DNA of 64,000 bases, taken from positions 1 through 64,000 of the forward strand of contig JAUCBJ010008278.1 in the NCBI GenBank assembly GCA_032718475.1, given 5' to 3'. Shown piece after piece: positions 13,347-64,000 of the stretch. The notes beneath the pieces were generated by a model. That model saw only the letters and a program-made list of their open reading frames with translations, made no database searches and was not told the origin of the DNA. Within the stretch, counting starts at the first letter, position 1. The number at the start of each line of letters is the position of its first letter. The stretch is from Nemertoderma westbladi. Lineage: Eukaryota; Animalia; Xenacoelomorpha. A program made the translations under genes and the position numbers.

Positions 13347-13400
13347 TTAATGGTGTCAATGTTATCAACATCATTATTATCATCAACAACCTTATTAGCC

Positions 13401-25190: not shown

Positions 25191-27797
25191 CAAACCTTTA
25201 CTGCGTTTTACGACTTCCACTTTTTATCCCCGGAGTCAAAAACTCTTAGAATTCTTGGTTAGATTGTCTGAAAAATGTTAACCCCAAGAGAATTAAAAGA
25301 TTATATCATTTTTCTAGAAATCTAGAAGATTTTGAAATTCTGTTCTGGAATGAAAAGTACGAGCAGTGGAAAAAATAAACGTAAAAAGATATGGCAATAG
25401 ACCGCTATCCACCCCCCCCCCCCCCACCCCACCCCCCTTAAAACGAGCTTTTGTAGATTTGCGAACCCGCCTCTGCCATACTGTATTTTCTGTAATTATA
25501 AAACATATATTAATAACAATGTAATATTATATATTAGGCTAATATCGTGTACTGAATCAATCTAATCACCAGGATTCTAAAATTCGCACTTCAATTATGA
25601 ATTTAAAATTCTAATAAATATATACAGTTTGCCAATGAGTGCGTTTATATCCTAGGAAGGGATGTCGTTTGATTTAGAGACCGGATCATTCCTCAGTCCG
25701 ACTCCGACTCCGACGCTGTCCGACTCGTAGGATAATGGAGACATCGCATTAATACTTGAATTATTATATTATTTAATTATTAGTAGTGTTCATGTCTACA
25801 CTTACATTATTAATTACAGATAACTTTTAGCGAAACACAAATTTAAACGGGTGACAAAAATACCAAAAATATGGATATGTCCTCACCAGCAGCGATATGG
25901 AAATTTAAATCGAAACGGGGGTGGGGGGGGGGGGGGTCGCTGATTGGCCAGATCTCGTTGCTAGGGTTGGCCAGATCTCGTTCTATGATTGGTCAGAGCT
26001 CGTCCTCTGGATTGTTGATCCGTCCTTGTGGATTGGCTATAACTTATATTTGGTTCACATTAATCAAATGAAGTCTATCAGTGTTTAGCTTGCAGCAAGC
26101 ATAGTGAAGAAACGACGAGACCTCAGGGCCAACGCATGCATTATTATTCACAATGGCAGTATGAGTTGTATTTGACATAATGAATACTTTAACTTCAAAG
26201 TAGTAGTCGCAAATTTCACGAGGATTTCATGAGGATTTTGTTTTATATATGTTAATCCAATTAATAAGTGATATTAATTATGGGATATGCGGTAGTAATT
26301 GTTAGATTTGTCATAATATTTTACTAGTGACGGGCCTAGCGGCCCGATAAGGAACCGACTTTTTATTTTAATAAAAGAGACAACGAGAACTAGTATAGAA
26401 CTAATAATTATGTAAAAATTCAATCATATTTCATACAATAATTATTAATAAATTAGATCTATTATTAGTTGCTCAATTCTAGAACAAAATCGACCTGCAA
26501 CTAGTGAAGACCTCGTTTTGGAATTTCGAAACCACGCTGGTGCGATGCGCGATATCGTGTTTAGTTAATAAATTGAAAACTCAATTCATGTGCAACCAGT
26601 AATAAGAAATCGCTATAAATGTAATTAAATAAAAATTATTCTAGAAAAATTTTCCTCAAAACGTATGAAGTCTTGGCATTGGTGACGCGAAACTAGGCTA
26701 GTGAGATTCAGGATATTGCGTTTAATATAAAAATCGAAAACGCTATCGAATTCCGTAAAGGCGTTAATAAAATACTGCAACTTTTTTGAAATTTGTAAAA
26801 TTCTAGAACTAGAAAAAATTTATTTTTGAACGGCGCTGTTTGGGTTTTCGAAACATGGATAGGCTGAAAGAGGACATCGAATTAAGTTGAAAAATAAAAA
26901 CCCCATCGAATTTGGACAAAGCGTTCCGGAGTTATAGCGGATCGAAAAAAATTGACCCCCCCCCCAGTCGCCAAAAATTTACAGTAATTTAAAATTTTGC
27001 AAAAAAAATTTTTTGCGTTATTTTTGATGGCGAATCGATTGGCAGTACTGGCTACGAAAAATTTTTTTTGAAATTTTTGGTCAGAAAAAAAAACATGGAA
27101 AAAGTATCTTTTTAAAAAGATTTGATGTCTTTGCCTATGGTCAGAGAATGATCCAACTCTGTAACTTGGCAATCGCTCAAATCCATTCAGCTGAATGGCA
27201 CAGTAGAGTAAACTAAAGTAAATTCCCTATACAATGTTCTGAAGGGGAGACTGACTGAGAGTAATCCAACAATAAAACATTTTGCAATAATGTTGGCATT
27301 AATGTAGCCAACCACTCACTGTGTACTTAAGTCATTCAGCTTACATTAGCAGAGTAAGATATTCGCATAGAATGCATTGGGAAGAGTAATTCAGCTGAGG
27401 CGATAAACTAAACCAACCAGTTAATATTTGCTTTGACAGAGTGTCCTAGGGCCTAAACAAACAGTATGGGTGTACTAAGTACAATAATCTTGGCAACCTC
27501 ATCGATTTATACTAAGCCTTGTGTAGAAATCCATTACATAAGCCATTTTTCATCACGACACCAGCTGTTATTGGTGTTATTTTACCATTGCGCCTATGGC
27601 GTTTTTTCGTTTATGTCTATTTTTCGAGCCCACGGCTCATGGACGAAATAGCGGAACATACCAGGGACCTTAGAATCGCGGTATCCAGCCGCTGTGAAAA
27701 TTTCATCAAAATCGTTAGAGTAGTTTTGGCTATAGATTAACCAGCCAGCCAGTCAGCCACGAGCAATTCTTACAGTAATGAACCTCTCGGTTCCTAA

Positions 27798-29270
27798 CTA
27801 GTGACGGGCCTAGCGGCCCGATAAGGAACCGACTTTTTATTTTAAATAAAAGAGACAACGAGAATTAGTATAGAACTAATAATTATGTAAAAATACAATC
27901 ATATTTCATACAATAATTATTAATAAATTCGATCTATTATTAGTTGCTCCATTCTAGAACAAAATCGACCTGCAACTAGTGAAGACCTCGTTTTGGAATT
28001 TCGAAACCACGCTGGTGCGATGCGCGATATCGTGTTTAGTTAATAAATTGATAACTCCATCAATTCATGTGCATCCAGTAATAAGAAATCGCGATAAATG
28101 TAATTAAATAAAAATTATTCTAGAAAAATTTTCCTCAAAAAGTATGAAGTCTTGGCATTGGTGGCGCGAAACTAGGCTAGTGAGATTCAGGATATTGCGT
28201 GTAATATAAAAATCGAAAACGCTATCGAATTCCGTAAAGGCGTTAATAAAATACTGCAACTTTTTTGAAATTTGTAAAATTCTAGAACTAGAAAAAATTA
28301 ATTTTTGAACGGCGCTGTTTGGGGTTTCGAAACATGGATAGGCTGAAAGAGGACATCGAATTAAGTTGAAAAATGAAAACCCCATCGAATTTGGACAAAG
28401 CGTTCCGGAGTTATAGCGGATCGAAAAAAATTGACCCCCCCCCAGTCGCCAAAAATTTACAGTAATTTAAAATTTTGCAAAAAAAATTTTTTGCGTTATT
28501 TTTGATGGCGAATCGATTGGCAGTACTGGCTACGAAAAATTTTTTTTTGAAATTTTTGGTCAGAAAAAAAACATGGAAAAAGTATATTTTTAAAAAGATT
28601 TGATGTCTTTGCATGATGGTCAGAGAATGATCCAACTCTGTACTTGGCAATCGCTCAAATCCATTCAGCTGAATGGCACAGTAGAGTAAACTAAAGTAAA
28701 TTCCCTATACAATGTTCTGAAGGGGAGACTGACAGAGAGTATTCCAACAATAAAACATTTTGCAATAATGTTGGCATTAATGTAGCCAACACACTGTGTA
28801 CTTAAGTCATTCAGCTTACATTAGCAGAGTGAGATATTCGCATAGAACGCATTGGGAAGAGTAATTCAGCTGAGGCAATATTAGATTTCAAACTAAACCA
28901 ACGAGTTAATGTTTGCTTTGACAGAGAGTGGTGGCCTATACAAACAGTATGGGTGTACTGAGTATAATAATCTTGGCAACCTCATCGATTTATTACTAAG
29001 CCTTCTGTAGAAATGCATTACATAAGCCATTTTTCATCACGACACCAGCTGTTATTGGTGTTATTTTACCATTGCGCCAATGGCGTTTTTTCGTTTATGT
29101 CTATTTTTCGAGCCCACGGCTCATGGACGAAATAGCGGAACATACCAGGGACCTTAGAATCGCGGTATCTAGCCGCTGTGAAAATTTCATCAAAATCGTT
29201 AGAGTAGTTTTGGCTGTAGATTAGCCAGTCAGCCAACAATTCTTACAGTAATGAACCTCTCGGTTCCTAA
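27798..29270 (-). mobile_element. Representative family-A unit (1473 bp)
   Basis: 5' TTAGGAACCGAGAGGTTC; 3' GTCGGTTCCTTA-T-CGGGCCGCTAGGCCCG-TCACTAG. Confidence 0.88.
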
Positions 29271-32200
29271 CTAGTGACGGGCCTAGCGGCCCGATAAGGA
29301 ACCGACTTTTTATTTCAAATAAAAGAGACAACGAGCTCGGCTCAGTCTGGCACGATTGGGCTCGATTCAGTTTGACTTGGCTTGATCGGCTCGACTTGGC
29401 TCAATTGGGCTCGACTCGGGTCGATAGGGCTCGACTCGGCTCGATTGGGCTCGAAACGGCTCGATTGGGATTGATTGGGCTTGACTCGGCTCGATTTGGC
29501 TCAACTTGGCTCAGTCCGGCTTGATTGGGCTCGTCTGGGCTCGGTCCGGCTCAATTGGGCTAGACCAGGCTTGATTGGGCACGACTCGGCTCTATTGGGC
29601 TCGACTTGATTCGATTGGGCTTTGACTCGGCTCAGTCTGGCTCGACTTGGCTTGATTGGGCTCAACTCGGCTCCGTCCGGCTCAATTTGGCATGACACGG
29701 CTCGACTCGGCTCGATAGGGCTTGGCTCGGCTCGGTCTGAGTCGACTCAGCTCGATTCGGCTCAATCGGCTCGATTGGGTTCGACTGGGTTCGGTCCGGC
29801 TCGACTTGGCTCAATTGGGCTCGATTCGGATCAATCCGCTCGACTCGGCTCGACTGGGATTGATTGGGCTTGACTCGGCTCGATTTGGCTCAACTTGGCT
29901 CAGTCTGGCTCGATTGGGCTCAACTTGGCTCGGTCCGGCTCAATTGGGCTCGACTAGGATTGATTGGGCTCGACTCGGCTCTATTGGGCTAAACTCGACT
30001 CGATTTGGCTTGACTCGGCTCAGTCTGGCTCGACTCGGCTTGATTGGGCTCAACTCGGCTTTGACTCGGCTCGATTGGGCTCGACTCGGCTTGATCGCTT
30101 CAATTGGTTCTATTCGGCTCGATCGGTATGATTTGGCTCGATTGACACCCACTGCTGGAAGGGTCAAAGCCAAACTCACGTGCTGCTAGAATGGACAAAG
30201 TCAAACATTGTGTCTAATATTTGATTAACTCACGTGCTGCTCGAAGGGCGCAACTACATATATCGAAACAAGCCCCTGTCTTGTATTTTAATAATAATAT
30301 ACACTCCCCAACGGGGTAAATGAAATTCGGTAAAATCATATTATTATTTTATCAATAAAATAGATATAAAATAAAAATAAATCAATTTGTATTTTAATTA
30401 TATCAGAAATCGTTGCCATGCATAATGCACTATATTTGGGTCCCATGACCCACCCCATTGAACATCTTTGCTTACATCTGATAGAGAGCAATCCCAAATT
30501 AACTTCCCTCTACGAAAATTATTTTAATTAAATACATGCAACATAGCAGTCTACTCTACAGTCAACAGTAGTAGGCCTACACAATAACTAAAATGGCATT
30601 CAGCTTACCAGCTATTCGCATTAAGCTAATAGATATTCGATTTCATTGGATTCAGTGAGTGTGTGAGGGCTATTGGGAGAGCAATCAGCTTATGATGTAA
30701 TACATTAGAATCCCACGGCTTTTGTTTGCTTACTGTCTGAGTTGTAGAGTGAGGATAATACTTGGCAGAGAAAGCATTTCCTTGTTAGGTGGCCATTCCT
30801 ATAGAATAGCATTACTAGGCTATCTCTATCCATTTTTCATGAGTGCCAGCTGGTGTTTTTATCATTGCGCCTATGGCGTTTTTTCGTTTATGTCTATTTG
30901 TCGAGCCCACGGCTCATGGACGAAATAGCGGAACATACCAGGGACCTTAGAATCGCGGTATCTAGCCGCTGTTAAAATTTCATCAAAATCGTTAGAGTAG
31001 TTTTGTCTGTAGATCAGTCAGTCAGCCAGTCTCGAGCAATTCTTACAGTAATGAACCTCTCGGTTCCTAACTAGAGACGGCGTCAAGACGCCGTTAAGCA
31101 AGTCGGAAGTCATCAATCAAATATAAATTCCCTCAACAATGTTTACCTATGGTCAGAATGGAAGGGCTATTTACCTATGGTCAGAGAGAGATCCCACTCT
31201 GTAATTTGGCAATTGCTCAAATTCATTCAGTTGAATGGCACAGTAGAGTGAACTAAACTAAATTCCCTCAACAATGTTTGGCTATGGTCTGAAAGAACTA
31301 ACAGTCATTCAGCTTGCACAATGTCAATCACCTACAGTATAAAACATTTAGAATGCCACAGTGTGTATCCTGATACAGATAATAAGCAGTGATATATATA
31401 TTTCAAACTATAATGTTAGTGTTAGCCTTACACAGTATCAGTATGAGGCTGAGTAAACATTCCACCTTATAAGCATACTGCCTCCACAGAATTAATGTTG
31501 GCCGAAAGATTTAAAAATAAAACAATTATTATTATAAATACAGTGCAATCCAATAGTACCCAACACACTGTGTAACTAACAGTCAATCAGCTTACACGTC
31601 AATTAACATAGAAGAGAGAGTAACCTTGTAGATCGCCATAGAAAGCATTGGGAAGAGTTATTCAGCTGAGGCTGTAATAGCCGGCTAACCCAGTGAATGA
31701 TTATAAAGTTGGCACTGTATGTACTTCCTTGTTAGGTGGCTCCCTATAGAATAGCAAACCAACCAGTTGATGTTTGTTTGCACAGAGTGGTTGGTAGGGC
31801 CTAAACAAACAGTATGGGTGTACTGAGTATAATACTCTTGGCAACCTCATCTATTTAATACTAAGCCTTGTGTAGAATTGCATTACATAAGTCATTTTTC
31901 ATCAGGACACCAGCTGTCACGGGTGTTATTTTACCATTGCGCCTATGGCGTTTTTTTCGTTTATCTCTATTTTTCGAGCCCAGAGGCTATGGACGGAGTA
32001 GCCGATCATGCCAGGGACCTTAGAATCGCGGTATCTAGATGCTGTGAAAATTTCATCAAAATCGTTAGAGTAGTTTTGGCTGTAGATCAGCCAGCCAGCC
32101 AGCCAGCCAGTCAGCCAGCCAGCCAGCCAGTCAGTCAGTCAACAATTCTTACAGTAATCAAGTCTAACGACTTGAACGACTTGACGACTAAACCAACGAG

Positions 32201-35200
32201 TTAATGTTTGCTTTGACAGAGAGTGGTGGCCTATACAAACAGTATGGGTGTACTGAGTATAATAATCTTGGCAACCTCATCGATTTATTACTAAGCCTTC
32301 TGTAGAAATGCATTACATAAGCCATTTTTCATCACGACACCAGCTGTTATTGGTGTTATTTTACCATTGCGCCAATGGCGTTTTTTCGTTTATGTCTATT
32401 TTTCGAGCCCACGGCTCATGGACGAAATAGCGGAACATACCAGGGACCTTAGAATCGCGGTATCTAGCCGCTGTGAAAATTTCATCAAAATCGTTAGAGT
32501 AGTTTTGGCTGTAGATTAGCCAGTCAGCCAACAATTCTTACAGTAATGAACCTCTCGGTTCCTAACTAGTGACGGGCCTAGCGGCCCGATAAGGAACCGA
32601 CTTTTTATTTCAAATAAAAGAGACAACGAGCTCGGCTCAGTCTGGCACGATTGGGCTCGATTCAGTTTGACTTGGCTTGATCGGCTCGACTTGGCTCAAT
32701 TGGGCTCGACTCGGGTCGATAGGGCTCGACTCGGCTCGATTGGGCTCGAAACGGCTCGATTGGGATTGATTGGGCTTGACTCGGCTCGATTTGGCTCAAC
32801 TTGGCTCAGTCCGGCTTGATTGGGCTCGTCTGGGCTCGGTCCGGCTCAATTGGGCTAGACCAGGCTTGATTGGGCACGACTCGGCTCTATTGGGCTCGAC
32901 TTGATTCGATTGGGCTTTGACTCGGCTCAGTCTGGCTCGACTTGGCTTGATTGGGCTCAACTCGGCTCCGTCCGGCTCAATTTGGCATGACACGGCTCGA
33001 CTCGGCTCGATAGGGCTTGGCTCGGCTCGGTCTGAGTCGACTCAGCTCGATTCGGCTCAATCGGCTCGATTGGGTTCGACTGGGTTCGGTCCGGCTCGAC
33101 TTGGCTCAATTGGGCTCGATTCGGATCAATCCGCTCGACTCGGCTCGACTGGGATTGATTGGGCTTGACTCGGCTCGATTTGGCTCAACTTGGCTCAGTC
33201 TGGCTCGATTGGGCTCAACTTGGCTCGGTCCGGCTCAATTGGGCTCGACTAGGATTGATTGGGCTCGACTCGGCTCTATTGGGCTAAACTCGACTCGATT
33301 TGGCTTGACTCGGCTCAGTCTGGCTCGACTCGGCTTGATTGGGCTCAACTCGGCTTTGACTCGGCTCGATTGGGCTCGACTCGGCTTGATCGCTTCAATT
33401 GGTTCTATTCGGCTCGATCGGTATGATTTGGCTCGATTGACACCCACTGCTGGAAGGGTCAAAGCCAAACTCACGTGCTGCTAGAATGGACAAAGTCAAA
33501 CATTGTGTCTAATATTTGATTAACTCACGTGCTGCTCGAAGGGCGCAACTACATATATCGAAACAAGCCCCTGTCTTGTATTTTAATAATAATATACACT
33601 CCCCAACGGGGTAAATGAAATTCGGTAAAATCATATTATTATTTTATCAATAAAATAGATATAAAATAAAAATAAATCAATTTGTATTTTAATTATATCA
33701 GAAATCGTTGCCATGCATAATGCACTATATTTGGGTCCCATGACCCACCCCATTGAACATCTTTGCTTACATCTGATAGAGAGCAATCCCAAATTAACTT
33801 CCCTCTACGAAAATTATTTTAATTAAATACATGCAACATAGCAGTCTACTCTACAGTCAACAGTAGTAGGCCTACACAATAACTAAAATGGCATTCAGCT
33901 TACCAGCTATTCGCATTAAGCTAATAGATATTCGATTTCATTGGATTCAGTGAGTGTGTGAGGGCTATTGGGAGAGCAATCAGCTTATGATGTAATACAT
34001 TAGAATCCCACGGCTTTTGTTTGCTTACTGTCTGAGTTGTAGAGTGAGGATAATACTTGGCAGAGAAAGCATTTCCTTGTTAGGTGGCCATTCCTATAGA
34101 ATAGCATTACTAGGCTATCTCTATCCATTTTTCATGAGTGCCAGCTGGTGTTTTTATCATTGCGCCTATGGCGTTTTTTCGTTTATGTCTATTTGTCGAG
34201 CCCACGGCTCATGGACGAAATAGCGGAACATACCAGGGACCTTAGAATCGCGGTATCTAGCCGCTGTTAAAATTTCATCAAAATCGTTAGAGTAGTTTTG
34301 TCTGTAGATCAGTCAGTCAGCCAGTCTCGAGCAATTCTTACAGTAATGAACCTCTCGGTTCCTAACTAGAGACGGCGTCAAGACGCCGTTAAGCAAGTCG
34401 GAAGTCATCAATCAAATATAAATTCCCTCAACAATGTTTACCTATGGTCAGAATGGAAGGGCTATTTACCTATGGTCAGAGAGAGATCCCACTCTGTAAT
34501 TTGGCAATTGCTCAAATTCATTCAGTTGAATGGCACAGTAGAGTGAACTAAACTAAATTCCCTCAACAATGTTTGGCTATGGTCTGAAAGAACTAACAGT
34601 CATTCAGCTTGCACAATGTCAATCACCTACAGTATAAAACATTTAGAATGCCACAGTGTGTATCCTGATACAGATAATAAGCAGTGATATATATATTTCA
34701 AACTATAATGTTAGTGTTAGCCTTACACAGTATCAGTATGAGGCTGAGTAAACATTCCACCTTATAAGCATACTGCCTCCACAGAATTAATGTTGGCCGA
34801 AAGATTTAAAAATAAAACAATTATTATTATAAATACAGTGCAATCCAATAGTACCCAACACACTGTGTAACTAACAGTCAATCAGCTTACACGTCAATTA
34901 ACATAGAAGAGAGAGTAACCTTGTAGATCGCCATAGAAAGCATTGGGAAGAGTTATTCAGCTGAGGCTGTAATAGCCGGCTAACCCAGTGAATGATTATA
35001 AAGTTGGCACTGTATGTACTTCCTTGTTAGGTGGCTCCCTATAGAATAGCAAACCAACCAGTTGATGTTTGTTTGCACAGAGTGGTTGGTAGGGCCTAAA
35101 CAAACAGTATGGGTGTACTGAGTATAATACTCTTGGCAACCTCATCTATTTAATACTAAGCCTTGTGTAGAATTGCATTACATAAGTCATTTTTCATCAG

Positions 35201-35469
35201 GACACCAGCTGTCACGGGTGTTATTTTACCATTGCGCCTATGGCGTTTTTTTCGTTTATCTCTATTTTTCGAGCCCAGAGGCTATGGACGGAGTAGCCGA
35301 TCATGCCAGGGACCTTAGAATCGCGGTATCTAGATGCTGTGAAAATTTCATCAAAATCGTTAGAGTAGTTTTGGCTGTAGATCAGCCAGCCAGCCAGCCA
35401 GCCAGTCAGCCAGCCAGCCAGCCAGTCAGTCAGTCAACAATTCTTACAGTAATCAAGTCTAACGACTTG
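28892..35469. repeat. Tandem segmental duplication with 3295-bp offset (28892-32174 copied at 32187-35469)
   Basis: Identical ORF-track entries offset by 3295; 12-nt filler aacgacttgacg at 32175-32186. Confidence 0.92.
29334..30140. repeat. Degenerate (GGCTC)n pentamer tract inside a family-A unit; duplicated at ~32629-33435
   Basis: ggctc/gattg/gactc pentamers. Confidence 0.9.
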
Positions 35470-35473
35470 CTAA
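34366..35473 (-). mobile_element. Representative family-B unit (1108 bp)
   Basis: 5' TTAGCAAGTCGTTAGACTTG; 3' CGACTTGCTTA-ACGGCGTCTTGACGCCGT-CTCTAG. Confidence 0.88.
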
Positions 35474-37034
35474 CTAGTGACGGGCCTAGCGGCCCGATAA
35501 GGAACCGACTTTTTATTTCAAATAAAAGAGACAACGAGAATTATTATAGAACTAATAATTATGTAAAAATACAATCTTATTTCATACAATAATTAAATAA
35601 ATTCGATCTATTATTAGTTACTCAATTCTAGAACAAAATTGACCTGCAACTAGTGAAGACCTCGTTTTGGAATTTCGAAACCACGCTGGTGCGATGCGCG
35701 ATATCGTGTTTAGTTAATAAATTGAAAACTCCATCAATTCAAGTGCAACCAGTAATAAGAAATCGCGATAAATGTAATTAAATAAAAATTATTCTAGAAA
35801 AATTTTCCTCAAAAAGTATGAAGTCTTGGCGTTGGTGACGCGAAACTAGGCTAGTGAGATTCAGGATATTGCGTTTAATATAAAAATCGAAAACGCTATC
35901 GAATTCCGTAAAGGGGTTAATAAAATACTGCAACTTTTTTGAAATTTGTAAAATTCTAGAACTGGAAAAAATTAATTTTTGAACGGCGCTGTTTGGGGTT
36001 TGGAAACATGGATAGGCTGAAAGAGGACATCAAATTAAGTTGAAAAATGAAAACCCCATCGAATTTGGACAAAGCATTCCGGAGTTATAGCGGATCGAAA
36101 AAAATTGACCCCCCCCAGTCGCCAAAAATTTACAGTAATTTAAAATTTTGCAAAAAAAATTTTTTGCGTTATTTTTGATGGCGAATCGATTGGCAGTACT
36201 GGCTACGAAAAATTTTTTTTTGAAATTTTTGGTCAGAAAAAAAACATGGAAAAAGTATATTTTTAAAAACATTTGATGTCTTTGCCTATGGTCAGAGAAT
36301 GATCCAACTCTGTAACTTGGCAATCGCTCAAATCCATTCAGCTGAATGGCACAGTAGAGTAAACTAAAGTAAGTTCCCTATACAATGTTCTGAAGGGGTG
36401 ACTGACAGAGAGTAATCCAACAATAAAACATTTTGCAATAATGTTGGCATTAATGTAGCCAACTCACTGTGTAAGTAACAGTCATTCAGCTTACATTAGC
36501 AGAGTGAGATATTCCCATACAATGCATTGGGAAGAGTAATTCAGCTGAGGCGATATTAGATTTCAAACTAAAGCAACCAGTTAATATTTGCTTTGACAGA
36601 GTGTCCTAGGGCCTAAACAAACAGTATGGGTGTACTGAGTACAATAATCTTGGCAACCTCATCGATTTATACTAAGCCTTGTGTAGAAATCCATTACATA
36701 AGCCATTTTTCATCACGACACCAGCTGTTATTGGTGTTATTTTACCATTGCGCCTATGGCGTTTTTTCGTTTATGTCTATTTTTCGAGCCCACGGCTCAT
36801 GGACGAAATAGCGGAACATACCAGGGACCTTAGAATCGCGGTATCTAGCCGCTGTGAAAATTTCATCAAAATCGTTAGAGTAGTTTTGGCTGTGGGTCAG
36901 TCAGTCAGTCAGTCAGCCAGTCAATCAATCAGCAAACAATTCTTACAGTAATGAACCTTTCGGTTCCTAACTAGTGACGGGCCTAGCGGCCCGATAAGGA
37001 ACCGACTTTTTATTTCAAATAAAAGAGACAACAA

Positions 37035-37586
37035 GCTCGGATCGGTCTTGCACGATTGGGCACGATTAAGTTCGAATTGGCTTGATCGGCTCGGCTCGGC
37101 TCGGTTCGGTTCGGCTCGGCTCGGCTCGGCTCGGCTCGGCTCGGCTCGGTTTGGCTCGGCTCGGCTCGGCTTGGCTTGGCTCGGCTCGGCTCGGTTCGGC
37201 TCGGCTCGGCTCGGCTCGGCTCGGTTCGGCTCGGCTCGGCTCGGCTCGGCTCGGCTCGGCTTGGCTTGGCTCGGTTCGGCTTGGCTCGGCTCGGCTCGGC
37301 TCGGCTCGGCTTGGCTCGGCTCGGCTCGGCTCGGCTCGGCTCGGCTTGGCTCGGCTCGGTTCGGCTCGGCTCGGTTAGGCTCGGCTCGGCTCGGTTCGGC
37401 TCGGCTCGGCTCGGCTCGGCTCGGCTCGGCTCGGCTCGGCTCGGCTCGGCTCGGCTCTGCTCGGCTCAGGCTCGGCTCGGCTCGGCTCGGCTCGGCTCGG
37501 CTCGGCTCGGCTCGGCTCGGCTCGGCTCGGCTCGGCTCGGCTCGGCTCGGCTCGGCTTGGCTCGGCTCGGCTCGGTCTGAGTCGAC
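37035..37586. repeat. Nearly pure (GGCTC)n tract
   Basis: Long perfect ggctc runs. Confidence 0.95.
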
Positions 37587-37589
37587 TCC

Positions 37590-53800: not shown

Positions 53801-55494
53801 CACCAGCTGTCATGGGTGTTATTTTACCATTGCGCCTATGGCGTTTTTTTCGTTTATCTCTATTTTTCGAGCCCAGAGGCTATGGACGGAGTAGCCGATC
53901 ATGCCAGGGACCTTAGAATCGCGGTATCTAGATGCTGTGAAAATTTCATCAAAATCGTTAGAGTAGTTTTGGCTGTAGATCAGCCAGCCAGCCAGCCAGC
54001 CAGTCAGCCAGCCAGCCAGCCAGTCAGTCAGTCAACAATTCTTACAGTAATCAAGTCTAACGACTTGCTAACTAGTGACGGGCCTAGCGGCCCGATAAGG
54101 AACCGACTTTTTATTTTAAATAAAAGAGACAACGAGAATTAGTATAGAACTAATAATTATCTAAAAATACAATCATATTTCATACAATAATTATTAATAA
54201 ATTCGATCCATTATTAGTTGCTCAATTCTAGAACAAAATCGACCTGCAACTAGTGAAGACCTCGTTTTGGAATTTCGAAACCACGCTGGTGCGATGCGCA
54301 ATATCGTGTTTAGTTAATAAATTGAAAACTCCATCAATTCATGTGCAATCAGTAATAAGAAATCGCGATAAATGTAATTAAATAAAAATTATTCTAGAAA
54401 AATTTTCCTCAAAAAGTATGAAATCTTGGCATTGGTGACGCGAAACTAGGCTAGTGAGATTCAGGATATTGCGTTTAATATAAAAATCGAAAACGCTATC
54501 GAATTCCGTAAAGGCGTTAATAAAATACTGCAACTTTTTTGAAATTTGTAAAATTCTAGAACTAGAAAAAAATAATTTTTGAACGGCGCTGTTTGGGGTT
54601 TCGAAACATGGATAGGCTGAAAGAGGACATCGAATTAAGTTGAAAAATGAAAACCCCATCGAATTTGGACAAAGCGTTCCGGAGTTATAGCGGATCGAAA
54701 AAAATTGACCCCCCCCAGTCGCCAAAAATTTACAGTAATTTAAAATTTTGCAAAAAAAATTTTTTGCGTTATTTTTTATGGCGAATCGATTGGCAGTACT
54801 GGCTACGAAAAATTTTTTTTGAAATTTTTGGTCAGAAAAAAAAACATGGAAAAAGTATATTCTTAAAAAGATTTGATGTCTTTGCCTATGGTCAGAGAAT
54901 GATCCAACTCTGTACTTGGCAATCGCTCAAATCCATTCAGCTGAATGGCACAGTAGAGTAAACTAAATTAAATTCCCTATACAATGTTCTGAAGGGGAGA
55001 CTGACAGAGAGTAATCCAACAATAAAACATTTTGCAATAATGTTGGCATTAATGTAGCCAACACACTGTGTACTTAAGTCATTCAGCTTACATTAGCAGA
55101 GTGAGATATTCGCATAGAATGCATTGGGAAGAGTAATTCAGCTGAGGCGATTAACTAAACCAACCAGTTAATGTTTGCTTTGACAGAGAGTGGTTGCCTA
55201 TACAAACAGTATCAGTGTACTGAGTATAATAATCTTGGCAACCTCATCGATTTATTACTAAGCCTTGTGTAGAAATGCATTACATAAGCCATTTTTCATG
55301 AGGACACCAGCTGTCATTGGTGTTATTTTACCATTGCGCCAATGGCGTTTTTTCGTTGATGTCTATTTTTCGAGACCATGGCTCATGGACGAAATAGCGG
55401 AACATACCAGGGACCTTAGAATCGCGGTATCTAGCCGCTGTGAAAATTTCATCAAAATCGTTAGAGTAGTTTTGGCTGTAGATTAGCCAGCCAG

Positions 55495-55529
<35 letters not shown>

Positions 55530-55631
55530 GCCAACAATTCTTACAGTAATGAACCTCTCGGTTCCTAACTAGTGACGGGCCTAGCGGCCCGATAAGGAAC
55601 CGACTTTTTATTTCAAATAAAAGAGACAACG

Positions 55632-56482
55632 AGCTCGGCTCGGTCTGGCATGATTGGGCTCGATTCAGTTCGACTTGGCTTGATGGGCTCGGTTTGGCTC
55701 GATTGGGCTCGACTCAGCTTGATTGGGCTCGACTCGACTCAGCTCGATTCGTCTCAATCGGCTTGATTGGGTTCGACTCGGTTCGGTCTGGCTCGACTTG
55801 GCTCAATTGGGCTCGACTCGGCTCGATTGGTCTCGACTCAGCTCGATTGGGCTTGATTGGTCTTGATTCGGCTCGATTTGGCTCAACTTGGCTCAGTCTA
55901 GCTCGACTGGGCTCGGTCCGGCTCAATTGGGCGCGACTAGGCTTGATTTGGCTCGACTCGGCTCTATTGGGCTCGACTCGATTCGATTAGGCTCAACTCG
56001 GCTCCGTCCGGCTCGACTCGGCTCGACTCGGCTTGATTGGTCTCGACTCGACTCAGTCCGGCTCAATTTGGCGTGACATGGCTCGATTGGGTTCGGCTCG
56101 GCTCGATCTGAGTCGACTCAGCTCGATTCGGCTCAATCGGCTCGATTGGGTTTGACTCGGCTCGGTTCAGCTCGACTCGGCTCAATCCACTCGACTCGGC
56201 TCGGTTTGGATTGATTTGGGCTTGACTCGGCTTGATTTGGCTCAACTTGGCACAGTATGGCTCGATTGGGCTCGACTTGGCTCGGTCCGGCTCAATTGGG
56301 CTCGACTAGGATTGATTGGGTTCGACTCGGCTCTATTGGGCTCGACTCAACTCGATTGGGCTTGTCTCGGCTCAGTTTGGATCGCTCGGCTTGATTGGGC
56401 TCAACTCGGTTCCATTCGGCTAACTCGGCTCGATTGGCTCGTCTCGGCTTGATCGCCTCGATTGGTTCTATTCGGCTCGATT
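55632..56482. repeat. Degenerate (GGCTC)n tract
   Basis: Pentamer periodicity. Confidence 0.9.
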
Positions 56483-59400
56483 GACACACGCTGCTGGAAG
56501 GGTCAAAGCCAAACCCACGTGCTGCTCGAAGGGACGAAGTCAAACAGTGAGTCTATTATTTGATGTAACTCACGTGCTGCTCGAAGGACGCAACATCATA
56601 TATCAAGGGTCAAAGCAAAACTCACGTGCTGCTCGAAGGGACAAAGTCAAACAGTGTGTCTATTATTTGATGTAACTCACGTGCTGCTCGATGGGTCAAA
56701 GCCAAACTCACGTGCTGCTCGAAGGGACAAAGTCAAACATTGTGTCTAATATTTGATTAACTCACTTGCTGCTCGAAGGGCGAGTATAGAACTAATAATT
56801 ATGTAAAAATACAATCATATTTCATACAATAATTATTAATAAATTCGATCTATTATTAGTTGCTCAATTCTAGAACAAAATCGACCTGCAACTAGTGAAG
56901 ACCTCGTTTTGGAATTTCGAAACCACGCTGGTGCGATGCGCGATATCGTGTTTAGTTAATAAATTGAAAACTCCATCAATTCATGTGAAACCAGTAATAA
57001 GAAATCGCGATAAATGTAATTAAAAAAAATTATTCTAGAAAAATTTTCCTCAAAAAGTATGAAGTCTTGGCGTTGGTGACGCGAAACTAGGCTAGTGAGA
57101 TTCAGGATATTGCGTTTAATATAAAAATCGAAAACGCTATCGAATTCCGTAAAGGCGTTAATAAAATACTGCAACTTTTTTGAAATTTGTAAAATTCTAG
57201 AACTAGAAAAAATTAAATTTTGAACGGCGCTGTTTGGGGTTTCGAAACATGGATAGACTGAAAGAGGACATCGAATTAAGTTGAAAAATAAAAACCCCAT
57301 CGAATTTGGACAAAGCGTTCCGGAGTTATAGCGGATCGAAAAAAATTGACCCCCCCCCCCCCAGTCGCCAAAAATTTACAGTAATTTAAAATTTTGCAAA
57401 AAAAATTTTTTGCGTTATTTTTGATGGCGAATCGATTGGCAGTACTGGCTACGAAAAATTTTTTTTTGAAATTTTTGGTCAGAAAAAAAAACATGGAAAA
57501 AGTATATTTTTAAAAAGATTTGATGTCTTTGCCTATGGTCAGAGAATGATCCAACTCTGTAACTTGGCAATCGCTCAAATCCATTCAGCTGAATGGCACA
57601 ATAGAGTAAACTAAAGTAAATTCCCTATACAATGTTCTGAAGGGGAGACTGACAGAGAGTAATCCAACAATAAAACATTTTGCAATAATGTTGGCATTAA
57701 TGTAGCCAACACACTGTACTTAAAGTCATTCAGCTTACATTAGCAGAGTGAGATATTCTCATAGAATGCATTGGGAAGAGTAATTCAGCTGAGGCGATAA
57801 TAGATTTCTAACTAAACCAACCAGTTAATATTTGCTTTGACAGAGTGTCCTAGGGCCTAAACAAACAGTATGGGAGTACTGAGTACAATAATCTTGGCAA
57901 CCTCATCGATTTATACTAAGCCTTGTGTAGAAATCCATTACATAAGCCATTTTTCATCACGACACCAGCTGTTATTGGTGTTATTTTACCATTGCGCCTA
58001 TGGCGTTTTTTCGTTTATGTCTATTTTTCGAGCCCACGGCTCATGGACGAAATAGCGGAACATACAAGGGACCTTAGAATCGCGGTATCCAGCCGCTGTG
58101 AAAATTTCATCAAAATCGTTAGAGTAGTTCTGGCTATAGATTAACCAGCCAGCCAGTCAATCAATCAATCAGCCAACAATTCTTACAGTAATGAACCTCT
58201 CGGTTCCTAACTAGTGACGGGCCTAGCGGCCCGATAAGGAACCGACTTTTTATTTCAAATAAAAGAGACAACGAGAATTAGTATAGAACTAATAATTATG
58301 TAAAAATACAATCATATTTCATACAATAATTATTAATAAATTCGATCTATTATTAGTTGCTCAATTCTAGAACAAAATCGACCTGCAACTAGTGAAGACC
58401 TCGTTTTGGAATTTCGAAAACACTCTGGTGCGATGCGCGATATCGTGTTTAGTTAATAAATTGAAAACTCCTTCAGTTCATGTGCAACCAGTAATAAGAA
58501 ATCGCGATAAATGTAATTAAATAAAAATTATTCTAGAAAAAATTTCCTCAAAAAGTATGAAGTCTTGGCATTGGTGACGCGAAACTAGGCAAGTGAGATT
58601 CAGGATATTGCGTTCATTATAAAAATCGAAAACGCTATCGAATTCCGTAAAGGCGTTAATAAAATACTGCAACTTTTTTGAAATTTGTAAAATTCTAGAA
58701 CTAGAAAAAATTAATTTTTGAACGGCGCTGTTTAGGGTTTCGAAACATGGATAGGCTGAAAGAGGACATCGAATTAAGTTGAAAAATGAAAACCCCATCA
58801 AATTTGGACAAAGCATTCCGGAGTTATAGCGGATCGAAAAAAATTGACCCCCCCCCCAGTCGCCAAAAATTTACAGTAATTTAAAATTTTGCAAAAAAAA
58901 TTTTTTGCGTTATTTTTGATGGCGAATCGATTGGCAGTACTGGCTACGAAAAATTTTTTTTTGAAATTTTTGGTCAGAAAAAAAAACATGGAAAAGTATA
59001 TTTTTAAAAAGATTTGATGTCTTTGCCTATGGTCAGAGAATGATCCAACTCTGTAACTTGGCAATCGCTCAAATCCATTCAGCTGAATGGCACAGTAGAG
59101 TAAACTAAAGTAAATTCCCTTTACAATGTTCTGAAGGGGAGACTGACAGAGAGTAATCCAACAATAAAACATTTTGCAATAATGTTGGTCTTAGCCTTAC
59201 AGAGTATCAGTATAAGGCTGAGTAAACATTCCACCTTATAAGCATACAGCCTCCACAGTATTAATGTTGGCATTAATGTAGCCGATACACTGTATACCTA
59301 ATAGTCATTCAGCAGGGGGAAGAGTTATTCAGCTGAGGCGGTAATAGATTGCAAACTAAACCAACCAGTTGGCAGCCTCATCGATTTATACTAAGCCTGT

Positions 59401-60280
59401 GTAGAACCACAAACTAAATCAACCAGTTAATATTTGCTTTGACAGAGTGTCCTAGGGCCTAAACAAACAGTATGGGTGTACTAAGTACAATAATCTTGGC
59501 AACCTCATCGATTTATACTAAGCCTTGTGTAGAAATCCATTACGTAAGCCATTTTTCATCACGACACCAGCTGTTATTGGTGATATTTTACCATTGCGCC
59601 TATGGCGTTTTTTCGTTTATGTCTATTTTTCGAGCCCACGGCTCATGGACGAAATAGCGGAACATACCAGAGACCTTAGAATCGCGGTATCCAGCCGCTG
59701 TGAAAATTTCATCAAAATCGTTAGAGTAGTTTTGGCTATAGATTAGCCAGCCAGTCAGCCAGCCAGTCAGCCAGTCAGCTAACAATTCTTACAGTAATGA
59801 ACCTCTCGGTTCCTAACTAGAGACGGCGTCAAGACGCCGTTAAGCAAGTCGGAAGTCATCAATCAAATATAAATTCCCTCAACAATGTTTACCTATGGTC
59901 AGAATGGAAGGGCTATTTACCTATGGTCAGAGAGAGATCCCACTCTGTAATTTGGCAATTGCTCAAATTCATTCAGTTGAATGGCACAGTAGAGTGAACT
60001 AAACTAAATTCCCTCAACAATGTTTGGCTATGGTCTGAAAGAACTAACAGTCATTCAGCTTGCACAATGTCAATCACCTACAGTATAAAACATTTAGAAT
60101 GCCACAGTGTGTATCCTGATACAGATAATAAGCAGTGATATATATATTTCAAACTATAATGTTAGTGTTAGCCTTACACAGTATCAGTATGAGGCTGAGT
60201 AAACATTCCACCTTATAAGCATACTGCCTCCACAGAATTAATGTTGGCCGAAAGATTTAAAAATAAAACAATTATTATTA

Positions 60281-60614
60281 TTAGCAAGTCGTAGGACTTG
60301 ATTACTGTAAGAATTGTTGGCTGATTGACTGGCTGGCTGGCTGGCTGACTGGCTGGCTGGCTGGCTGGCTGATCTACAGCCAAAACTACTCTAACGATTT
60401 TGATGAAATTTTCACAGCGGCTAGATACCGCGATTCTAAGGTCCCTGGTATGTTCCGCTATTTCGTCCATGAGCCGTGGGCTCGAAAAATAGACATAAAC
60501 GAAAAAACGCCATAGGCGCAATGGTAAAATAACACCAATGACAGCTTGTTGATGGAATTTACATTTGATTGATGACTTCCGACTTGCTTAACGGCGTCTT
60601 GACGCCGTCTCTAG
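60281..60614 (+). mobile_element. 334-bp minimal family-B element inserted in inverted orientation into another B unit
   Basis: TTAGCAAGTC...GACGCCGTCTCTAG. The empty site in sibling units is attattattA|Taaatacag; no TSD. Confidence 0.95.
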
Positions 60615-61321
60615 TAAATACAGTGCAATCCAATAGTACCCAACACACTGTGTAACTAACAGTCAATCAGCTTACACGTCAATTAACATAGAAGAGAGAG
60701 TAACCTTGTAGATCGCCATAGAAAGCATTGGGAAGAGTTATTCAGCTGAGGCTGTAATAGCCGGCTAACCCAGTGAATGATTATAAAGTTGGCACTGTAT
60801 GTACTTCCTTGTTAGGTGGCTCCCTATAGAATAGCAAACCAACCAGTTGATGTTTGTTTGCACAGAGTGGTTGGTAGGGCCTAAACAAACAGTATGGGTG
60901 TACTGAGTACAATAATCTTGGCAACCTCATCGATTTATACTAAGCCTTGTGTAGAAATCCATTACATAAGCCATTTTTCATCACGACACCAGCTGTTATT
61001 GGTGTTATTTTACCATTGCGCCTATGGCGTTTTTTTCGTTTATGTCTATTTTTCGAGCCCAGCGGCTCATGGACGAAGTAGCGGAACATACCAGGGACCT
61101 TAGAATCGCGGTATCTAGCCGCTGTGAAAATTTCATCAAAATCGTTAGAGTAGTTTTGGCTGTAGATCAGCCAGCCAGCCAGCCAGCCAGTCAGCCAGCC
61201 AGCCAGCCAGTCAGTCAGTCAACAATTCTTACAGTAATCAAGTCTAACGACTTGCTAACTAGTGACGGGCCTAGCGGCCCGATAAGGAACCGACTTTTTA
61301 TTTCAAATAAAAGAGACAACG

Positions 61322-62284
61322 AGCTCGGCTCGGTCTTGCACGATTGGGCACGATTTAGTTCGACTTGGTTTGATCGGCTCGGTTTGGCTCGATTAGGCTC
61401 GGCTCGGCTCGATCTGACTCGACTCAGCTTGATTCGGCTCAATCAGCTCGATTGGGTTCGACTCGGCTCGGTCCAGCTCGACTTGGCTCAATTGGGCTCG
61501 ATTCAGCTCAATCTGCTCGACTCAGCTCGAATCGGCTCAATTGGGATTGATTGGGCTTGACTCGGATCGATTTGGCGCAACTTGGCTCAGTCTGGCTCGA
61601 TTGGGCTCGACTTGGCTCGGTCCGGCTCAATTGGGCTCGACTAGGCTTGATTGGGCTCGACCCGGCTCGATTGGGCTCGACTCGATTCGATTTGGGCTTG
61701 ACTCGGCTCAGTCTGGCTCGACTCGGCTCGATTGGGCTCGACTCAGCTTGATTGGGCTCAATCCGGGCTCAATTTGGCGTGACACGGTCGACACGGCTCG
61801 GCTCGGCTCGGATCGGCTTGGCTCGGCTCGGCTCGGCTCGGCTCGGATCGGCTCGGCTCGGCTCGGCCCGGCTCGGCTCGGCTCGGTCTGAGTCGACTCA
61901 GCTCGATTCGGCTCGATTGGGTTCGACTTGGCTCGGTCCGGCTTGACTAGGCTCAATTGGGCTCGATTCGGCTCAATCGACACGACTCGGCTCGAATGGG
62001 ATTGATTGGGCTTGACTTGGCTCGATTTGGCTCAACTTGGCTCAGTCCGGCTCAATTGGGTTCGACTTGGCTCGGTCCAGCTCAATTGGGCTCGACTAGG
62101 CTTGATTGGGCTCGACTCGGCTCTATTGGGCTCGACTCGACTCGATTGGGCTTGACTCGGCTCAGTCTGGCTCGACTCGGCTTAATTGGGCTCAACTCGG
62201 CTCTGTTCGGCTCGATTGGGCTCGACTCGGCTTGATCACCTCGATTGGTTCTATTCGGCTCAATCGGTATGATTCGGCTCGATT
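61322..62284. repeat. Degenerate (GGCTC)n tract
   Basis: Pentamer periodicity. Confidence 0.9.
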
Positions 62285-64000
62285 GACACACGATGCTGGA
62301 AGGGTTAAAGCCAAACTCACGTGCTGCTCGAAGGGACAAAGTCAAACAGTGTGTCTATTATTTGATGTAACTCATGAGCTGCTCGAAGGGCGCAACATCA
62401 TATATCAAGGGACAAAGCAAAACTCACGTGCTGCTCGAAGGGACAAAGTCAAACAGTGTGTCTATTATTTGATGTAACTCACGCGCTGCTCGAAAGGCGC
62501 AAATACATTATATCGAAGGGTCAAAGCCAAACTCACGTGCTGCTCGAAGTGACAAAGTCAAACATTGTGTCTAATATTTGATTAACTCACGTGCTGCTCG
62601 AAGGGCGCAACTACATATATCGAAACAAGCCCCTGTCTTGTATTTTAATTATAACAGAAATCCTTGCCTTCAGTACAAAATATCTAAAAATTAATTTACC
62701 TGAAGTATGGGTAACATTATAAATTCGCTTTTCACACACAGTAGTTAACTAAAGCAAATACCATTCAGGTTGACTGAATGATTTTATTAATGTTTGCCAT
62801 GCATAATGTACTATATTTGGGTCCCATGGCCCACCCCATTGAACAGCTTTGCTTACATCTGATAGAGAGTAATCCCAAATTAACTTCCCTCTACGAAAAT
62901 TATTTTAATTAAATACATACAACATAGCAGACAACTCTGCAATCAACAGTACGCAATAACTAAAATGGCATTCAGCTTACCAGCTATTCGCATTAAGCTA
63001 ATAGATATTCGATTTCATTCGATTCATTGAGTGTGTGAGGGCTATTGGGAGAGCAATCAGCTTATGATGTAATACATTAGAATCCCACGGCTTTTGTTTG
63101 CTTACTGTCTGAGTTGTAGAGTGAGGATAATACTTGGCAGAGAAAGCATTTCCTTGTTAGGTGGCCATTCCTATAGAATAGCATTACTAGGCTATCTCGA
63201 TCCATTTTTCATGAGTGCCAGCTGGTGTTTTTATCATTGCGCCTATGGCGTTTTTTCGTTTATGTCTATTTTTCGAGCCCACGGCTCATGGACGAAATAG
63301 CGGAACATACCAGGGACCTTAGAATCCGGTCAGCCAGCCGCTGTGAAAATTTCATCAAAATCGTTAGAGTAGTTTTGGCTATAGATTAACCAGCCAGTCA
63401 ATCAGCCAACAATTCTTACAGTAATGAACCTCTCGAACCTCTCGGTTCCTAACTAGTGACGGCGTCAAGACGCCGTTAAGCAAGTCGGAAGTCGTCAATC
63501 AAAGGTAAGTTCCCTCAACAATGTTTACCTTTGTTCAGAAGGGAAGTGTTATTTATCTATGGTCAGAGAGAGATCCCACTCTGTAATTTGGCAATTGCTC
63601 AAATCCATTCAGCTGAATGACTCAGTAGAGTAAACTAAAGTAAATTCCCTCAGCCTCAACAATGTTTGCCTATGGTGTGAAGGGAATCTGACAGAGAATA
63701 ATCTTAGCCACTAAATGTCATTCACCTAACAAAGCATTTTGAATGCCGCAGTGATTAACCCAATACAGATAATAAGCAGTTATTTTTATATTTCAAACTA
63801 TAATGTTAGTGTAAGCCTTACAGAGTATCAGTATGAGGCTGAGTAAACATTCCGCCTTATAAGCATACAGCCTCCACAGTATTAATGTTGGCATTAATGT
63901 AGCCGATACACTGTATACCTAATAGTCATTCAGCAGGGGGAAGAGTTATTCAGCTGAGGCGGTAATAGATTGCAAACTAAACCAACCAGTTGGCAGCCTC

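Follow-up and report, generated by a model that had tools for sequence, protein, structure and literature searches.

A base-exact mixed chain of two Helitron-like families in Nemertoderma westbladi and a tentative case for insertion at its junctions

Tandem Helitron arrays are usually credited to rolling-circle overrun of a single element. How a chain mixing different elements could arise is the question raised by a locus of Nemertoderma westbladi (assembly GCA_032718475.1, contig JAUCBJ010008278.1). In the whole 64,000-nucleotide stretch of DNA that was analysed (the window), the minus strand of positions 26324-64000 carries an unbroken chain of 25 head-to-tail units with 24 junctions, more than 37 kb long and open at the right, where it continues beyond the window edge at 64000. 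The units and the features within them are as follows.

26324..27797, minus strand: U1, family A; its 3' CTAG abuts a host T at the left array end
27798..29270, minus strand: U2, family A
29271..31070, minus strand: U3, G type (A termini with a GGCTC-repeat body)
31071..32565, minus strand: U4, B-short ending 4 bases short of its 5' terminus, a 12-base seam and a copy of the U2 5' part
28892..35469, no strand: perfect tandem duplication of 3283 bp (28892-32174 = 32187-35469)
32566..34365, minus strand: U5, G type, duplicate of U3
34366..35473, minus strand: U6, B-short haplotype 1
35474..36970, minus strand: U7, family A
36971..38659, minus strand: U8, G type
38660..40130, minus strand: U9, chimera of a B-long body (three 252-bp repeats), a B 3' end and an A 5' terminus
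40131..41237, minus strand: U10, B-short haplotype 2
41238..43316, minus strand: U11, composite of a G-type 3' part, a third-terminus-variant fragment (41843-42020) and a truncated A body
43317..44820, minus strand: U12, family A without terminal CTAG
44821..46329, minus strand: U13, B-long
46330..47825, minus strand: U14, family A
47826..49298, minus strand: U15, family A
49299..50406, minus strand: U16, B-short haplotype 1, equal to U6, with unrelated neighbours on both sides
50407..51857, minus strand: U17, family A; its 3' hairpin has a stem-breaking change
51858..54071, minus strand: U18 and U19, B-short dimer, both copies identical
54072..55568, minus strand: U20, family A
55569..58210, minus strand: U21, composite in which a G-type 3' part meets an A body near 56782
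58211..59816, minus strand: U22, A body, B-long piece and a 5' region equal to that of U14 over 328 bases
59817..61258, minus strand: U23, B-short; a tract of its 5' core is converted, and it holds the nested mini-B
60281..60614, plus strand: mini-B, 334 bp, with both B termini, nested inside U23
61259..63452, minus strand: U24, G type; 9 bases are duplicated at the 5' terminus
63453..64000, minus strand: U25, B-long variant, truncated where the window ends; its B end carries an A-family letter at position 5

The mixed chain of two families is real and is confirmed here. Junctions read exactly CTAG|TTAG in 23 of 24 cases, the exception being 43316/7, an A5'|A3' junction that has lost its CTAG. 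The junction octamer occurs 23 times, on a single strand only and always inside 27794-63456, whereas shuffled sequence averages 1.85 and never exceeds 7. By type, there are 8 A5'|A3', 9 A5'|B3', 6 B5'|A3' and 1 B5'|B3' junctions, the last lying at 52964/5 between U18 and U19; B|B joints are not significantly avoided (Fisher p = 0.17). The units are not all copies of one donor, as a homotypic concatemer would be, with 15 of 24 junctions heterotypic (A to B family) and each of the 11 A bodies distinct. Unit lengths are 1107-1108 for B, 1471-1509 for B-long, 1451-1504 for A and 1689-2194 for the GGCTC type. Because the A and GGCTC types have both termini in common, the units form two terminus families rather than four; these differ in the sequence of their subterminal inverted repeats (subTIRs), yet both are joined base-exactly. 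Between the units (26324-64000) no non-element DNA was identified, the units had no match in positions 1-26323, and no Rfam family was found in 25000-46500.

Much of the original prediction agrees with these measurements: the same-strand chain of Helitron-like elements (with one nested exception on the opposite strand), the six junctions placed at 31070/1, 35473/4, 44820/1, 46329/30, 59816/7 and 61258/9 (all exact), the roughly 15 joints between different families, the unit sizes and the lack of host DNA between units. The claim that junctions read CTAG|TTAG without added bases holds at all but 43316/7. Likewise, uniform orientation was found for the 25 chain units and fails for the mini-B in U23. 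Four unit types had also been listed; U4, U9, U11, U21, U22 and U23 are composites or mosaics rather than clean elements, and by their termini the units form two families.

Each family has an 11-bp subTIR with one mismatch (10/11 matches in A and in B) and a family-specific sequence. Read from its 5' end, U2 comprises TTAG, the subTIR within a 5' hairpin, a microsatellite, a shared core and the body, followed by the 3' subTIR, a hairpin with a 6-bp stem, and CTAG. The hairpins near the 3' end have stems of 6-7 bp (-8.3 kcal/mol, z = -2.7 and -3.3), and the same pair of hairpins forms in the folds of all four junction types (z = -4.0 to -5.8). The 5' inverted repeat nested in the subTIR, the microsatellite and the central repeats correspond to DINE-1 anatomy. 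Of the features that define HLE1, the units have the 3'-CTRR end (CTAG in 24 of 25 units) and the A|T target (A|T at the mini-B, T after U1); all ends begin with TT instead of 5'-TC, and inverted repeats are present through the 11-bp subTIR of both families. With respect to HLE2, the short subterminal inverted repeats (11-17 nt) are present, and insertion is at A|T (T|A with the ambiguous T moved over) rather than T-T. Judged by termini and anatomy, the units are best classed as putative non-autonomous, gene-less Helitron-like elements of Helitron2/DINE-1 type.

The insertion site was examined at the mini-B and in Logan contigs from five runs and three samples, one run of which may be the source sample. 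Compared with the empty paralogous site in other B copies, the filled mini-B site shows insertion at A|T without target-site duplication. Among the contigs, B-family copies with plain A|T solo 5' flanks numbered 16 in run X1 and 19 in run X3, so the use of joints is not exclusive. Solo flanks are AT-rich, the first bases of the element resemble the 3' target flank, and TTA follows CTAG in five contigs of X3. The predicted A|T target is therefore borne out by the empty site and the solo flanks, and the absence of target duplication, the 3' hairpin, the CTAG ends and this target uphold the view that the units are Helitron-like.

The two families differ sharply in divergence. The 11 A bodies show 8-32 differences per 760 columns and lie 1.4% from their consensus. 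In contrast, seven B-short copies spread over 30 kb have no variable column in the first 758, where about 64 substitutions would be expected in the six non-duplicate copies if B-short had the age of A. All seven copies carry the same B microsatellites, whereas those of the flanking units all differ. The identical B units, the youngest of the array, are scattered from 31 to 61 kb among old, all-different A units, at joints reading G|T. The divergence of the A units shows no age gradient along the array (Spearman 0.12, p = 0.72, n = 11).

Being perfect duplicates, U4 and U5 were excluded from the trees and the flank tests; the 3'-end test was run without U12 (no CTAG) and the 5'-end null without U24 (terminal duplication). 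Between B copies, exact identity runs through the whole unit. On the left it reaches 34-65 bp beyond the unit in 10 pairs, against a median of 36 for other A ends (n = 81, p = 0.16), and on the right 16-65 bp in 10 pairs, against a median of 45 (n = 68, p = 0.87); only the pair within the 3283-bp duplicate shares its flanks. Similarly, B-long U13 and the U9 body differ at 2 of 1031 positions, and their left neighbours match over only 34 bp. Junction type is unclustered on the trees, requiring four changes for 8 of 15 rows (a number that 137 of 500 shuffles reach or undercut) and three changes for 4 rows (381 of 500). Well-supported (starred) branches force only two origins per junction class. 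The three full G-type 5' ends, each beside a unit of B type, group in one starred clade (99/96), consistent with a single old joint. With U9, U17 and U22 having a near-junction haplotype of 49-65 bp in common, B-short may have as few as three left contexts. The A bodies of U14 and U20 are sisters, and each follows a B 5' end. From the flank comparisons, the heterotypic junctions appear to reflect several separate placements rather than one or two events copied with their flanks. The original prediction of multiple heterotypic origins fits the flanks, whereas the trees force only the two origins per class; its amplification by segmental duplication accounts for one junction pair, and no other large duplication explains junctions.

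The short-read contigs suggest that B-short is uniform outside the window too. Among the matches listed for X1-X3, contigs of 93-271 letters from its body carried 0-1 other letters at depths of 1710-4528, and several long flank-bearing contigs had depths of 5-34 (depth is not copy number). Run X4 gave little B-short body among its contigs, which is not taken as absence. The marker letters of B haplotype 1 (U6 and U16) are absent or near absent in X1-X3 contigs, which points to local copying. The B|B junction was found in X3 as an exact 51-letter piece at depth 2986 and in a 79-letter bridging contig at depth 146; under a bridging bar of 31 letters the 51-letter piece falls below, and only record 10 of the X3 listing passes. 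No B|B piece occurred among the eight matches listed for X1. The A|A joint appeared as a loose end in X1 and an A-type end before B in X3, and among the matches listed in one contig search no heterotypic joint was bridged at that bar.

Identical young copies between older, unrelated neighbours make addition at existing joints likely, as opposed to one growing end. Our leading explanation, to which we give slightly less than an even chance, is that a Rep-helicase transposase, encoded elsewhere, repeatedly placed single young B units into CTAG|TTAG joints in the interior of an older A chain. It builds on the Helitron-like ends, the duplication-free insertion of a solo copy at A|T, the contrast between identical B and all-different A units, and B flanks that are unrelated within ~65 bp of each joint. 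The chain of A and G-type units would have come first, through rolling-circle overrun and/or the same use of joints, and then aged. A chromosomal joint would equal the junction of a transposon circle in sequence and twin-hairpin layout, and the transposase would cut the latter reversibly; a nick at the joint could leave a 3' end able to accept an incoming unit, and every addition would turn one joint into two. Since the CTAG|TTAG core and hairpin layout are common to A and B, B could use A joints. The transposase is the likely agent because Helraiser cleaves the equivalent circle junction: the excerpted report describes reversible cleavage in vitro of the plus strand of a precise end-to-end junction (PMC5876387). 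Counting against joint use are the recombination inside the array, the two origins forced per junction class, the G-type clade, the near-junction haplotype of U9, U17 and U22, the sister bodies of U14 and U20, the plain A|T insertions of the B family, and the lack of an autonomous partner among the ORFs scanned and in the metagenome scans. Moreover, haplotype 1 looks local and Helraiser showed no local hopping (PMC4778049), and G|T is not among its named alternative targets (TT, AC, AA). Later reshuffling by recombination is seen in the chimeric units, the conversion tracts and the one 3.3-kb duplication.

Such conversion and recombination within the array are evident, with six composite or mosaic units and 12 added bases at the seam of the perfect duplicate, one end of which lies 4 bases from a B terminus. 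Could ordinary recombination alone have built the chain, one or two chance insertions beside a resident being spread by unequal crossover and gene conversion via a ~400-bp common core? The chimeric units, the perfect duplication, the two origins forced by starred branches and the G-type 5' ends beside a B-type unit (3/3) would all fit. However, identity ends at most 65 bp from both B ends in every non-duplicate pair, the homologous B core contains just two exchange tracts among six copies, and B microsatellites agree in 7/7 copies next to units whose microsatellites all differ. A crude bound on the probability of spread by randomly placed exchanges alone is about 6e-4, the estimates running from there to 1e-7 and depending on the assumptions, and we regard this explanation as improbable. 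An unlikely account, though the one to which we give more weight, is that an A|A joint was broken, by transposase or fragility, and that host repair copied a neighbouring A|B|A joint into the break, so that B spread unit-precisely from local donors without new transposition each time. The rare haplotype 1 at two unrelated array positions speaks for it, although a B-to-B conversion tract of ~91 bp would explain that haplotype equally well. Lesions at or beside joints (the duplication end, the CTAG loss at 43316/7, the 9-base duplication in U24) also agree with repair, but their tally is post hoc and lacks a comparison with other indels. The A letter at position 5 of the U25 B end and the 49-65 bp flank shared by U9, U17 and U22 point the same way; nevertheless, flank co-conversion is not significant (p = 0.16 and 0.87), and separate entries would still be needed for B-short and B-long.

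The original prediction envisaged polar growth, with each new element from genome-wide donors inserting at the A|T that the preceding one re-creates at its 5' edge. We consider this decidedly improbable. The A|T target is demonstrated, solo flanks are AT-rich, the element start resembles the 3' target flank (the TTA contigs of X3), and old genomic A copies could in principle be recent donors. However, the age gradient is absent, the young B units are interior at G|T joints, and identical B over 30 kb would need ~20 insertions within <0.07% divergence. The 11 differing A bodies, U12 without CTAG and the broken hairpin stems of U14 and U17 also argue against it. The original interpretation as a whole is partly supported. 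It is very improbable that the transposase linked circles from different families extrachromosomally into mixed concatemers, which then inserted blockwise. X3 seems rich in end-to-end B|B junctions, and precise junction circles serve as donors in the excerpted Helraiser work (PMC4778049, PMC5876387). Yet simultaneous mobility of A and B would be required, while A is old and all distinct, and no multi-unit block is repeated beyond the one duplication. An assembly artefact seems the remotest of the explanations. It would draw on the perfect 3283-bp duplicate and on a unit order known from the assembly; each A unit has private variants, the duplicate has a novel 12-base seam, and junction classes recur in short-read contigs (A|A in X1; B|B and an A-type end before B in X3), all of which speak against it.

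Generalizing insertion at joints, Helitron transposases may prefer chromosomal head-to-tail junctions as a family-crossing integration site, a dimer acting as a landing pad whose sites multiply with each insertion; we hold this as possible, with the balance somewhat against it. Analogous behaviour exists in viral and plasmid systems, where the HUH nucleases AAV Rep (at AAVS1) and TrwC (at oriT) integrate DNA at a chromosomal copy of their own nick site, at single sites unlike the growing arrays here. If true, junction landing pads would build cassette-like arrays that record successive family waves and give rise to satellite DNA; for rolling-circle transposons, such a self-made safe haven is not described in the literature searched. 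Junction targeting would also represent a sequence-specific mode of Helitron integration, would explain satellite-like blocks, and predicts that strands can be transferred into CTAG|TTAG joints. Should recombination alone account for the array, it is an ordinary transposon-derived satellite.

Homotypic Helitron arrays are already published. In the literature searched, no account of Helitron chains that mix families at base-exact joints came up; Dias et al. 2016, reportedly on DINE tandem insertions, and Xiong et al. 2016, said to concern plant centromeric arrays, may already report mixed junctions. Head-to-tail arrays are described from the D. pseudoobscura Y (bioRxiv 2021.06.02.446622), Xenopus (PMC12001565), Hydractinia (bioRxiv 2024.11.21.624632), and plants and bats (as cited in PMC5876387). 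In the excerpts of these sources the arrays are single-family and ascribed to rolling-circle overrun, unlike the mixed array here, and they describe neither joints exact to the base between families that differ in their subTIRs nor young units among old ones. Base-exact mixing, together with identical young units between old unrelated ones, makes overrun alone insufficient and points to junction targeting. In the double-insertion model of McGurk and Barbash 2018, as excerpted, the target is preserved and a new one made, seeding tandems as here (PMC5932611); that model needs target-site duplications and includes no Helitron case, whereas here the reusable site would be the joint.

In terms of anatomy, the excerpted account of Fusarium FoHeli1/2 (HLE2/Helitron2) matches in a hairpin per terminus, an asymmetric inverted repeat of 11-12 bp, a 3' repeat and hairpin located 30-40 bp inside the terminus, and insertion without target duplication. 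Shifting the ambiguous T brings the mini-B site into line with the TNAT|A reading of that account; the ends differ (TTAG...CTAG here, TCAG...ATTTT there). That account found no FoHeli1 tandems and reports nesting and one three-copy tandem in Metarhizium (PMC5148889). DINE-1/HINE elements (non-autonomous Helentrons), in the portion of PMC4067079 consulted, likewise have subTIRs that define families, a nested 5' inverted repeat, a microsatellite, a conserved core, central tandem repeats and a 3' stem-loop, but target TT with variable T runs instead of A|T with a fixed CTAG end. Their Helentron partner bears an endonuclease (PMC4067079); no such partner was found here in the ORFs or metagenome scans, the latter giving 0 matches each for the B and A 3' ends. 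Pfam detected no RepHel in the five long ORFs scanned of 47 listed, three of which have retrotransposon domains and two nothing. Proto-Helentrons, as excerpted, share 5'-TT, 3'-CTAG, insertion between A and T and an inverted repeat of ~12 nt with one mismatch, and differ in being autonomous, ~14 kb long, limited to Phytophthora and with the hairpin elsewhere (PMC4067079, PMC11417382). In the literature searched, as far as its excerpts go, the combination of HLE2-type subTIRs, TT...CTAG ends and an A|T target is reported only for these oomycete elements. The ORFs inside the array are repeat read-throughs.

From position 26324 to the right edge of the window, the minus strand carries a chain of 25 head-to-tail units (U1-U25), in a provisional order taken from the assembly. 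Copies of the junction octamer number 23, all of them on the same strand (shuffles: mean 1.85, maximum 7); at the 24th junction, 43316/7, the CTAG has been lost. With A and B denoting two terminus families, the 24 junctions comprise 8 A|A, 9 A|B, 6 B|A and 1 B|B. The original count of about 15 heterotypic junctions thus agrees with the 15 of 24 counted here, and its six quoted junction coordinates are all exact. The chain is not plain throughout: U23 contains a nested mini-B element on the opposite strand (60281-60614, plus), six units are composites or mosaics, and a 3283-bp stretch is perfectly duplicated (28892-32174 and 32187-35469) with a 12-base seam. The seam (32175-32186) repeats adjacent terminal sequence and resembles a templated repair insertion; 4 bases separate the duplication break from a B 5' terminus.

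Junctions were checked in Logan contigs of short-read runs (X1-X4), one of which may be the source of the assembly. A|A joints are present in X1 as loose ends. In X3, one contig of 79 letters bridges B|B, and in three contigs a B 3' end follows an A-type 5' end; the junction classes therefore exist in reads. A B|B piece of 51 letters, exact but below the bridging bar, also occurs in X3 at depth 2986, and that sample appears rich in B|B joints. The mixed-family array is a real feature, and an artefact is highly improbable.

On the minus strand, each unit begins with TTAG, a 5' hairpin overlapping an 11-bp subterminal inverted repeat (subTIR) and a tetranucleotide microsatellite, followed by a core of ~400 bp common to all unit types and by a variable body containing tandem repeats; the 3' subTIR, a hairpin and CTAG close the unit. 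Families A (including the G type, which has a GGCTC-repeat body) and B (short, long and mini) differ in their subTIR and hairpin sequences within an identical layout. The same anatomy is described in the available text on DINE-1/HINE (PMC4067079) and FoHeli1/2 (PMC5148889), and we infer unit orientation from the DINE-1 layout. A filled/empty pair inside the window shows that mini-B was inserted between A and T without duplication, and solo B 5' flanks in contigs of two runs (16 and 19) have a consensus A before the element. Proto-Helentron likewise has TT...CTAG ends and an A|T target, whereas the HLE2 rule is T|T (both PMC11417382, in part). Based on this anatomy, the mini-B site, the solo flanks and the termini, we call the units putative Helitron2-like non-autonomous elements. 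No RepHel was found among the 5 long ORFs scanned of the 47 listed for the window, and two metagenome scans, one for the 3' end of each family, returned 0 matches. At 41843-42020, a third 5'-terminus variant is embedded in B-long-type sequence; an X1 contig of depth 203 carries an identical join, so this piece is likely part of another multicopy element. The GGCTC body of U8 (37086-37575) consists almost purely of a 5-bp repeat (92% matches), unlike the degenerate 10/20-bp arrays of the remaining G units.

Across seven B-short copies the first 758 positions are invariant, where ~64 substitutions would be expected in the 6 non-duplicate copies were B as old as A; the seven represent two haplotypes, separated by 7 substitutions, and one mosaic. 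Between the two full B-long bodies there are 2 differences in 1031 sites. Pairs of the 11 A bodies show 8-32 differences over ~760 columns; every A body has private changes, and their mean distance from their own majority sequence is 1.4%. Three G bodies show 7-13 differences per 429. Listed X1-X3 contigs have 0-1 other letters against the B-short body, which is uniform outside the window as well. Their depths are 1710-4528, several long flank-bearing contigs lie far lower at 5-34, and contig depth is a rough guide only. Over 49150-50560, X4 strongly covers the A 3' end and very little of the B-short body (contigs cannot prove absence); B-short may have expanded in some populations only.

Maximal exact matches between B copies span one whole unit and stop where the adjoining terminus first varies. 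Excluding the duplicate units U4 and U5, five left neighbours of B match over 34-65 bp (other A ends: median 36, 81 pairs, p 0.16) and five right neighbours over 16-65 bp (median 45, 68 pairs, p 0.87). Left flanks of B copies carry 4-18 differences per ~220 sites, and only the 3283-bp duplicate shares flanks. Counting shared near-junction haplotypes as single events, our own reading of flanks and haplotypes gives at least 3 left contexts for B-short and 2 for B-long. Junction class is unclustered on the trees (4 changes for 8 of 15 rows, 137/500 shuffles as low; 3 changes for 4 rows, 381/500), which are weak and whose starred branches force only 2 origins. Random exchanges would need breakpoints crowded within ~50 bp of joints, with a probability of ~6e-4 on a conservative but crude count scaled from 2 tracts inside B's own core. 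We therefore judge it unlikely that the mixed junctions all go back to one or two ancestral events multiplied by crossover.

Several results speak against the junction-directed addition of B units that we favour below. Recombination is active in the array: U9 joins a B body to an A terminus, the end of U22 copies the 5' region of U14, and U23 has a converted tract. The three full G-type 5' ends group in a starred clade and each adjoins a B-type unit, and the sisters U14 and U20 each follow a B end. B haplotype 1 occurs at U6 and U16; its marker letter at 50080 is in no placed X1-X3 contig and those at 50120 and 50148 reach depths of at most 45 (contigs drop rare variants). This pattern implies that the whole unit or a 91-bp tract was copied locally. 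For Helraiser, in contrast, 701 events gave no local hopping (PMC4778049, available part); its alternative targets are named as TT, AC and AA, a list without the G|T of the joints here.

One and the same hairpin pair forms in the folds of all four junction types, and the 5' stem is predicted to reach over the joint. Helraiser makes circles joined precisely end to end, cleaves the plus strand of their junction reversibly, and appears to favour precise junctions as substrates (PMC5876387, in part). A chromosomal joint would present the same substrate as such a circle junction, at which B transposase may nick A|A joints and join an incoming unit, each addition turning one site into two. We advance this enzymatic route tentatively, by analogy with Helraiser; junction-directed addition is likely, albeit unproven, and the insertion of B elements at ordinary A|T sites also counts against it. 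Repair-based homing, in which a break at the joint is followed by copying from local donors, is unlikely, though ahead of the other rivals. Recombination alone is improbable given the breakpoint crowding it demands, and we rate polar growth at the A|T edge marginally lower. The polarity originally proposed lacks support, as A divergence shows no relation to position in the array (rho 0.12, p 0.72, n=11). Moreover, polar growth would need ~20 insertions within <0.07% divergence from all-different A donors, including one without CTAG and two with broken hairpins. Mixed concatemers are very unlikely.

Tandem Helitron arrays are already known from Drosophila, Xenopus, Hydractinia, plants and bats, and for fungi the accessible account raises self-insertion, with the 5' end of another element among the possible sites. 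The available part of PMC5932611 describes target-preserving double insertion for elements that duplicate their target; the available portions of PMC13085455 and PMC4224331 held nothing further on junctions. The apparently new aspect is the base-exact mixed-family chain, of which the literature searched, with incomplete coverage, gave no account.

Outside the array, direct repeats at 4450-6061 and 17295-18903 (1612 bp at 98.6% identity, 95-bp repeats inside) are likely retrotransposon LTRs, and a second pair (1789-2620 and 8284-9123) is 88% identical.

Coding features in and around the direct repeats
6355-7941: long ORF between the 1612-bp repeats, no Pfam hits
9063-10055: long ORF between the 1612-bp repeats, no Pfam hits
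13048-16893: 1281-aa ORF between the 1612-bp repeats, DUF1759 and aspartyl protease domains
3412-3909, 18671-19144: integrase and RNase H fragments

The 1281-aa ORF is putatively BEL/Pao-like, and the integrase and RNase H fragments suggest nested retroelements. A 17-bp minisatellite (42.5 copies, 96% matches) occupies 23748-24469.
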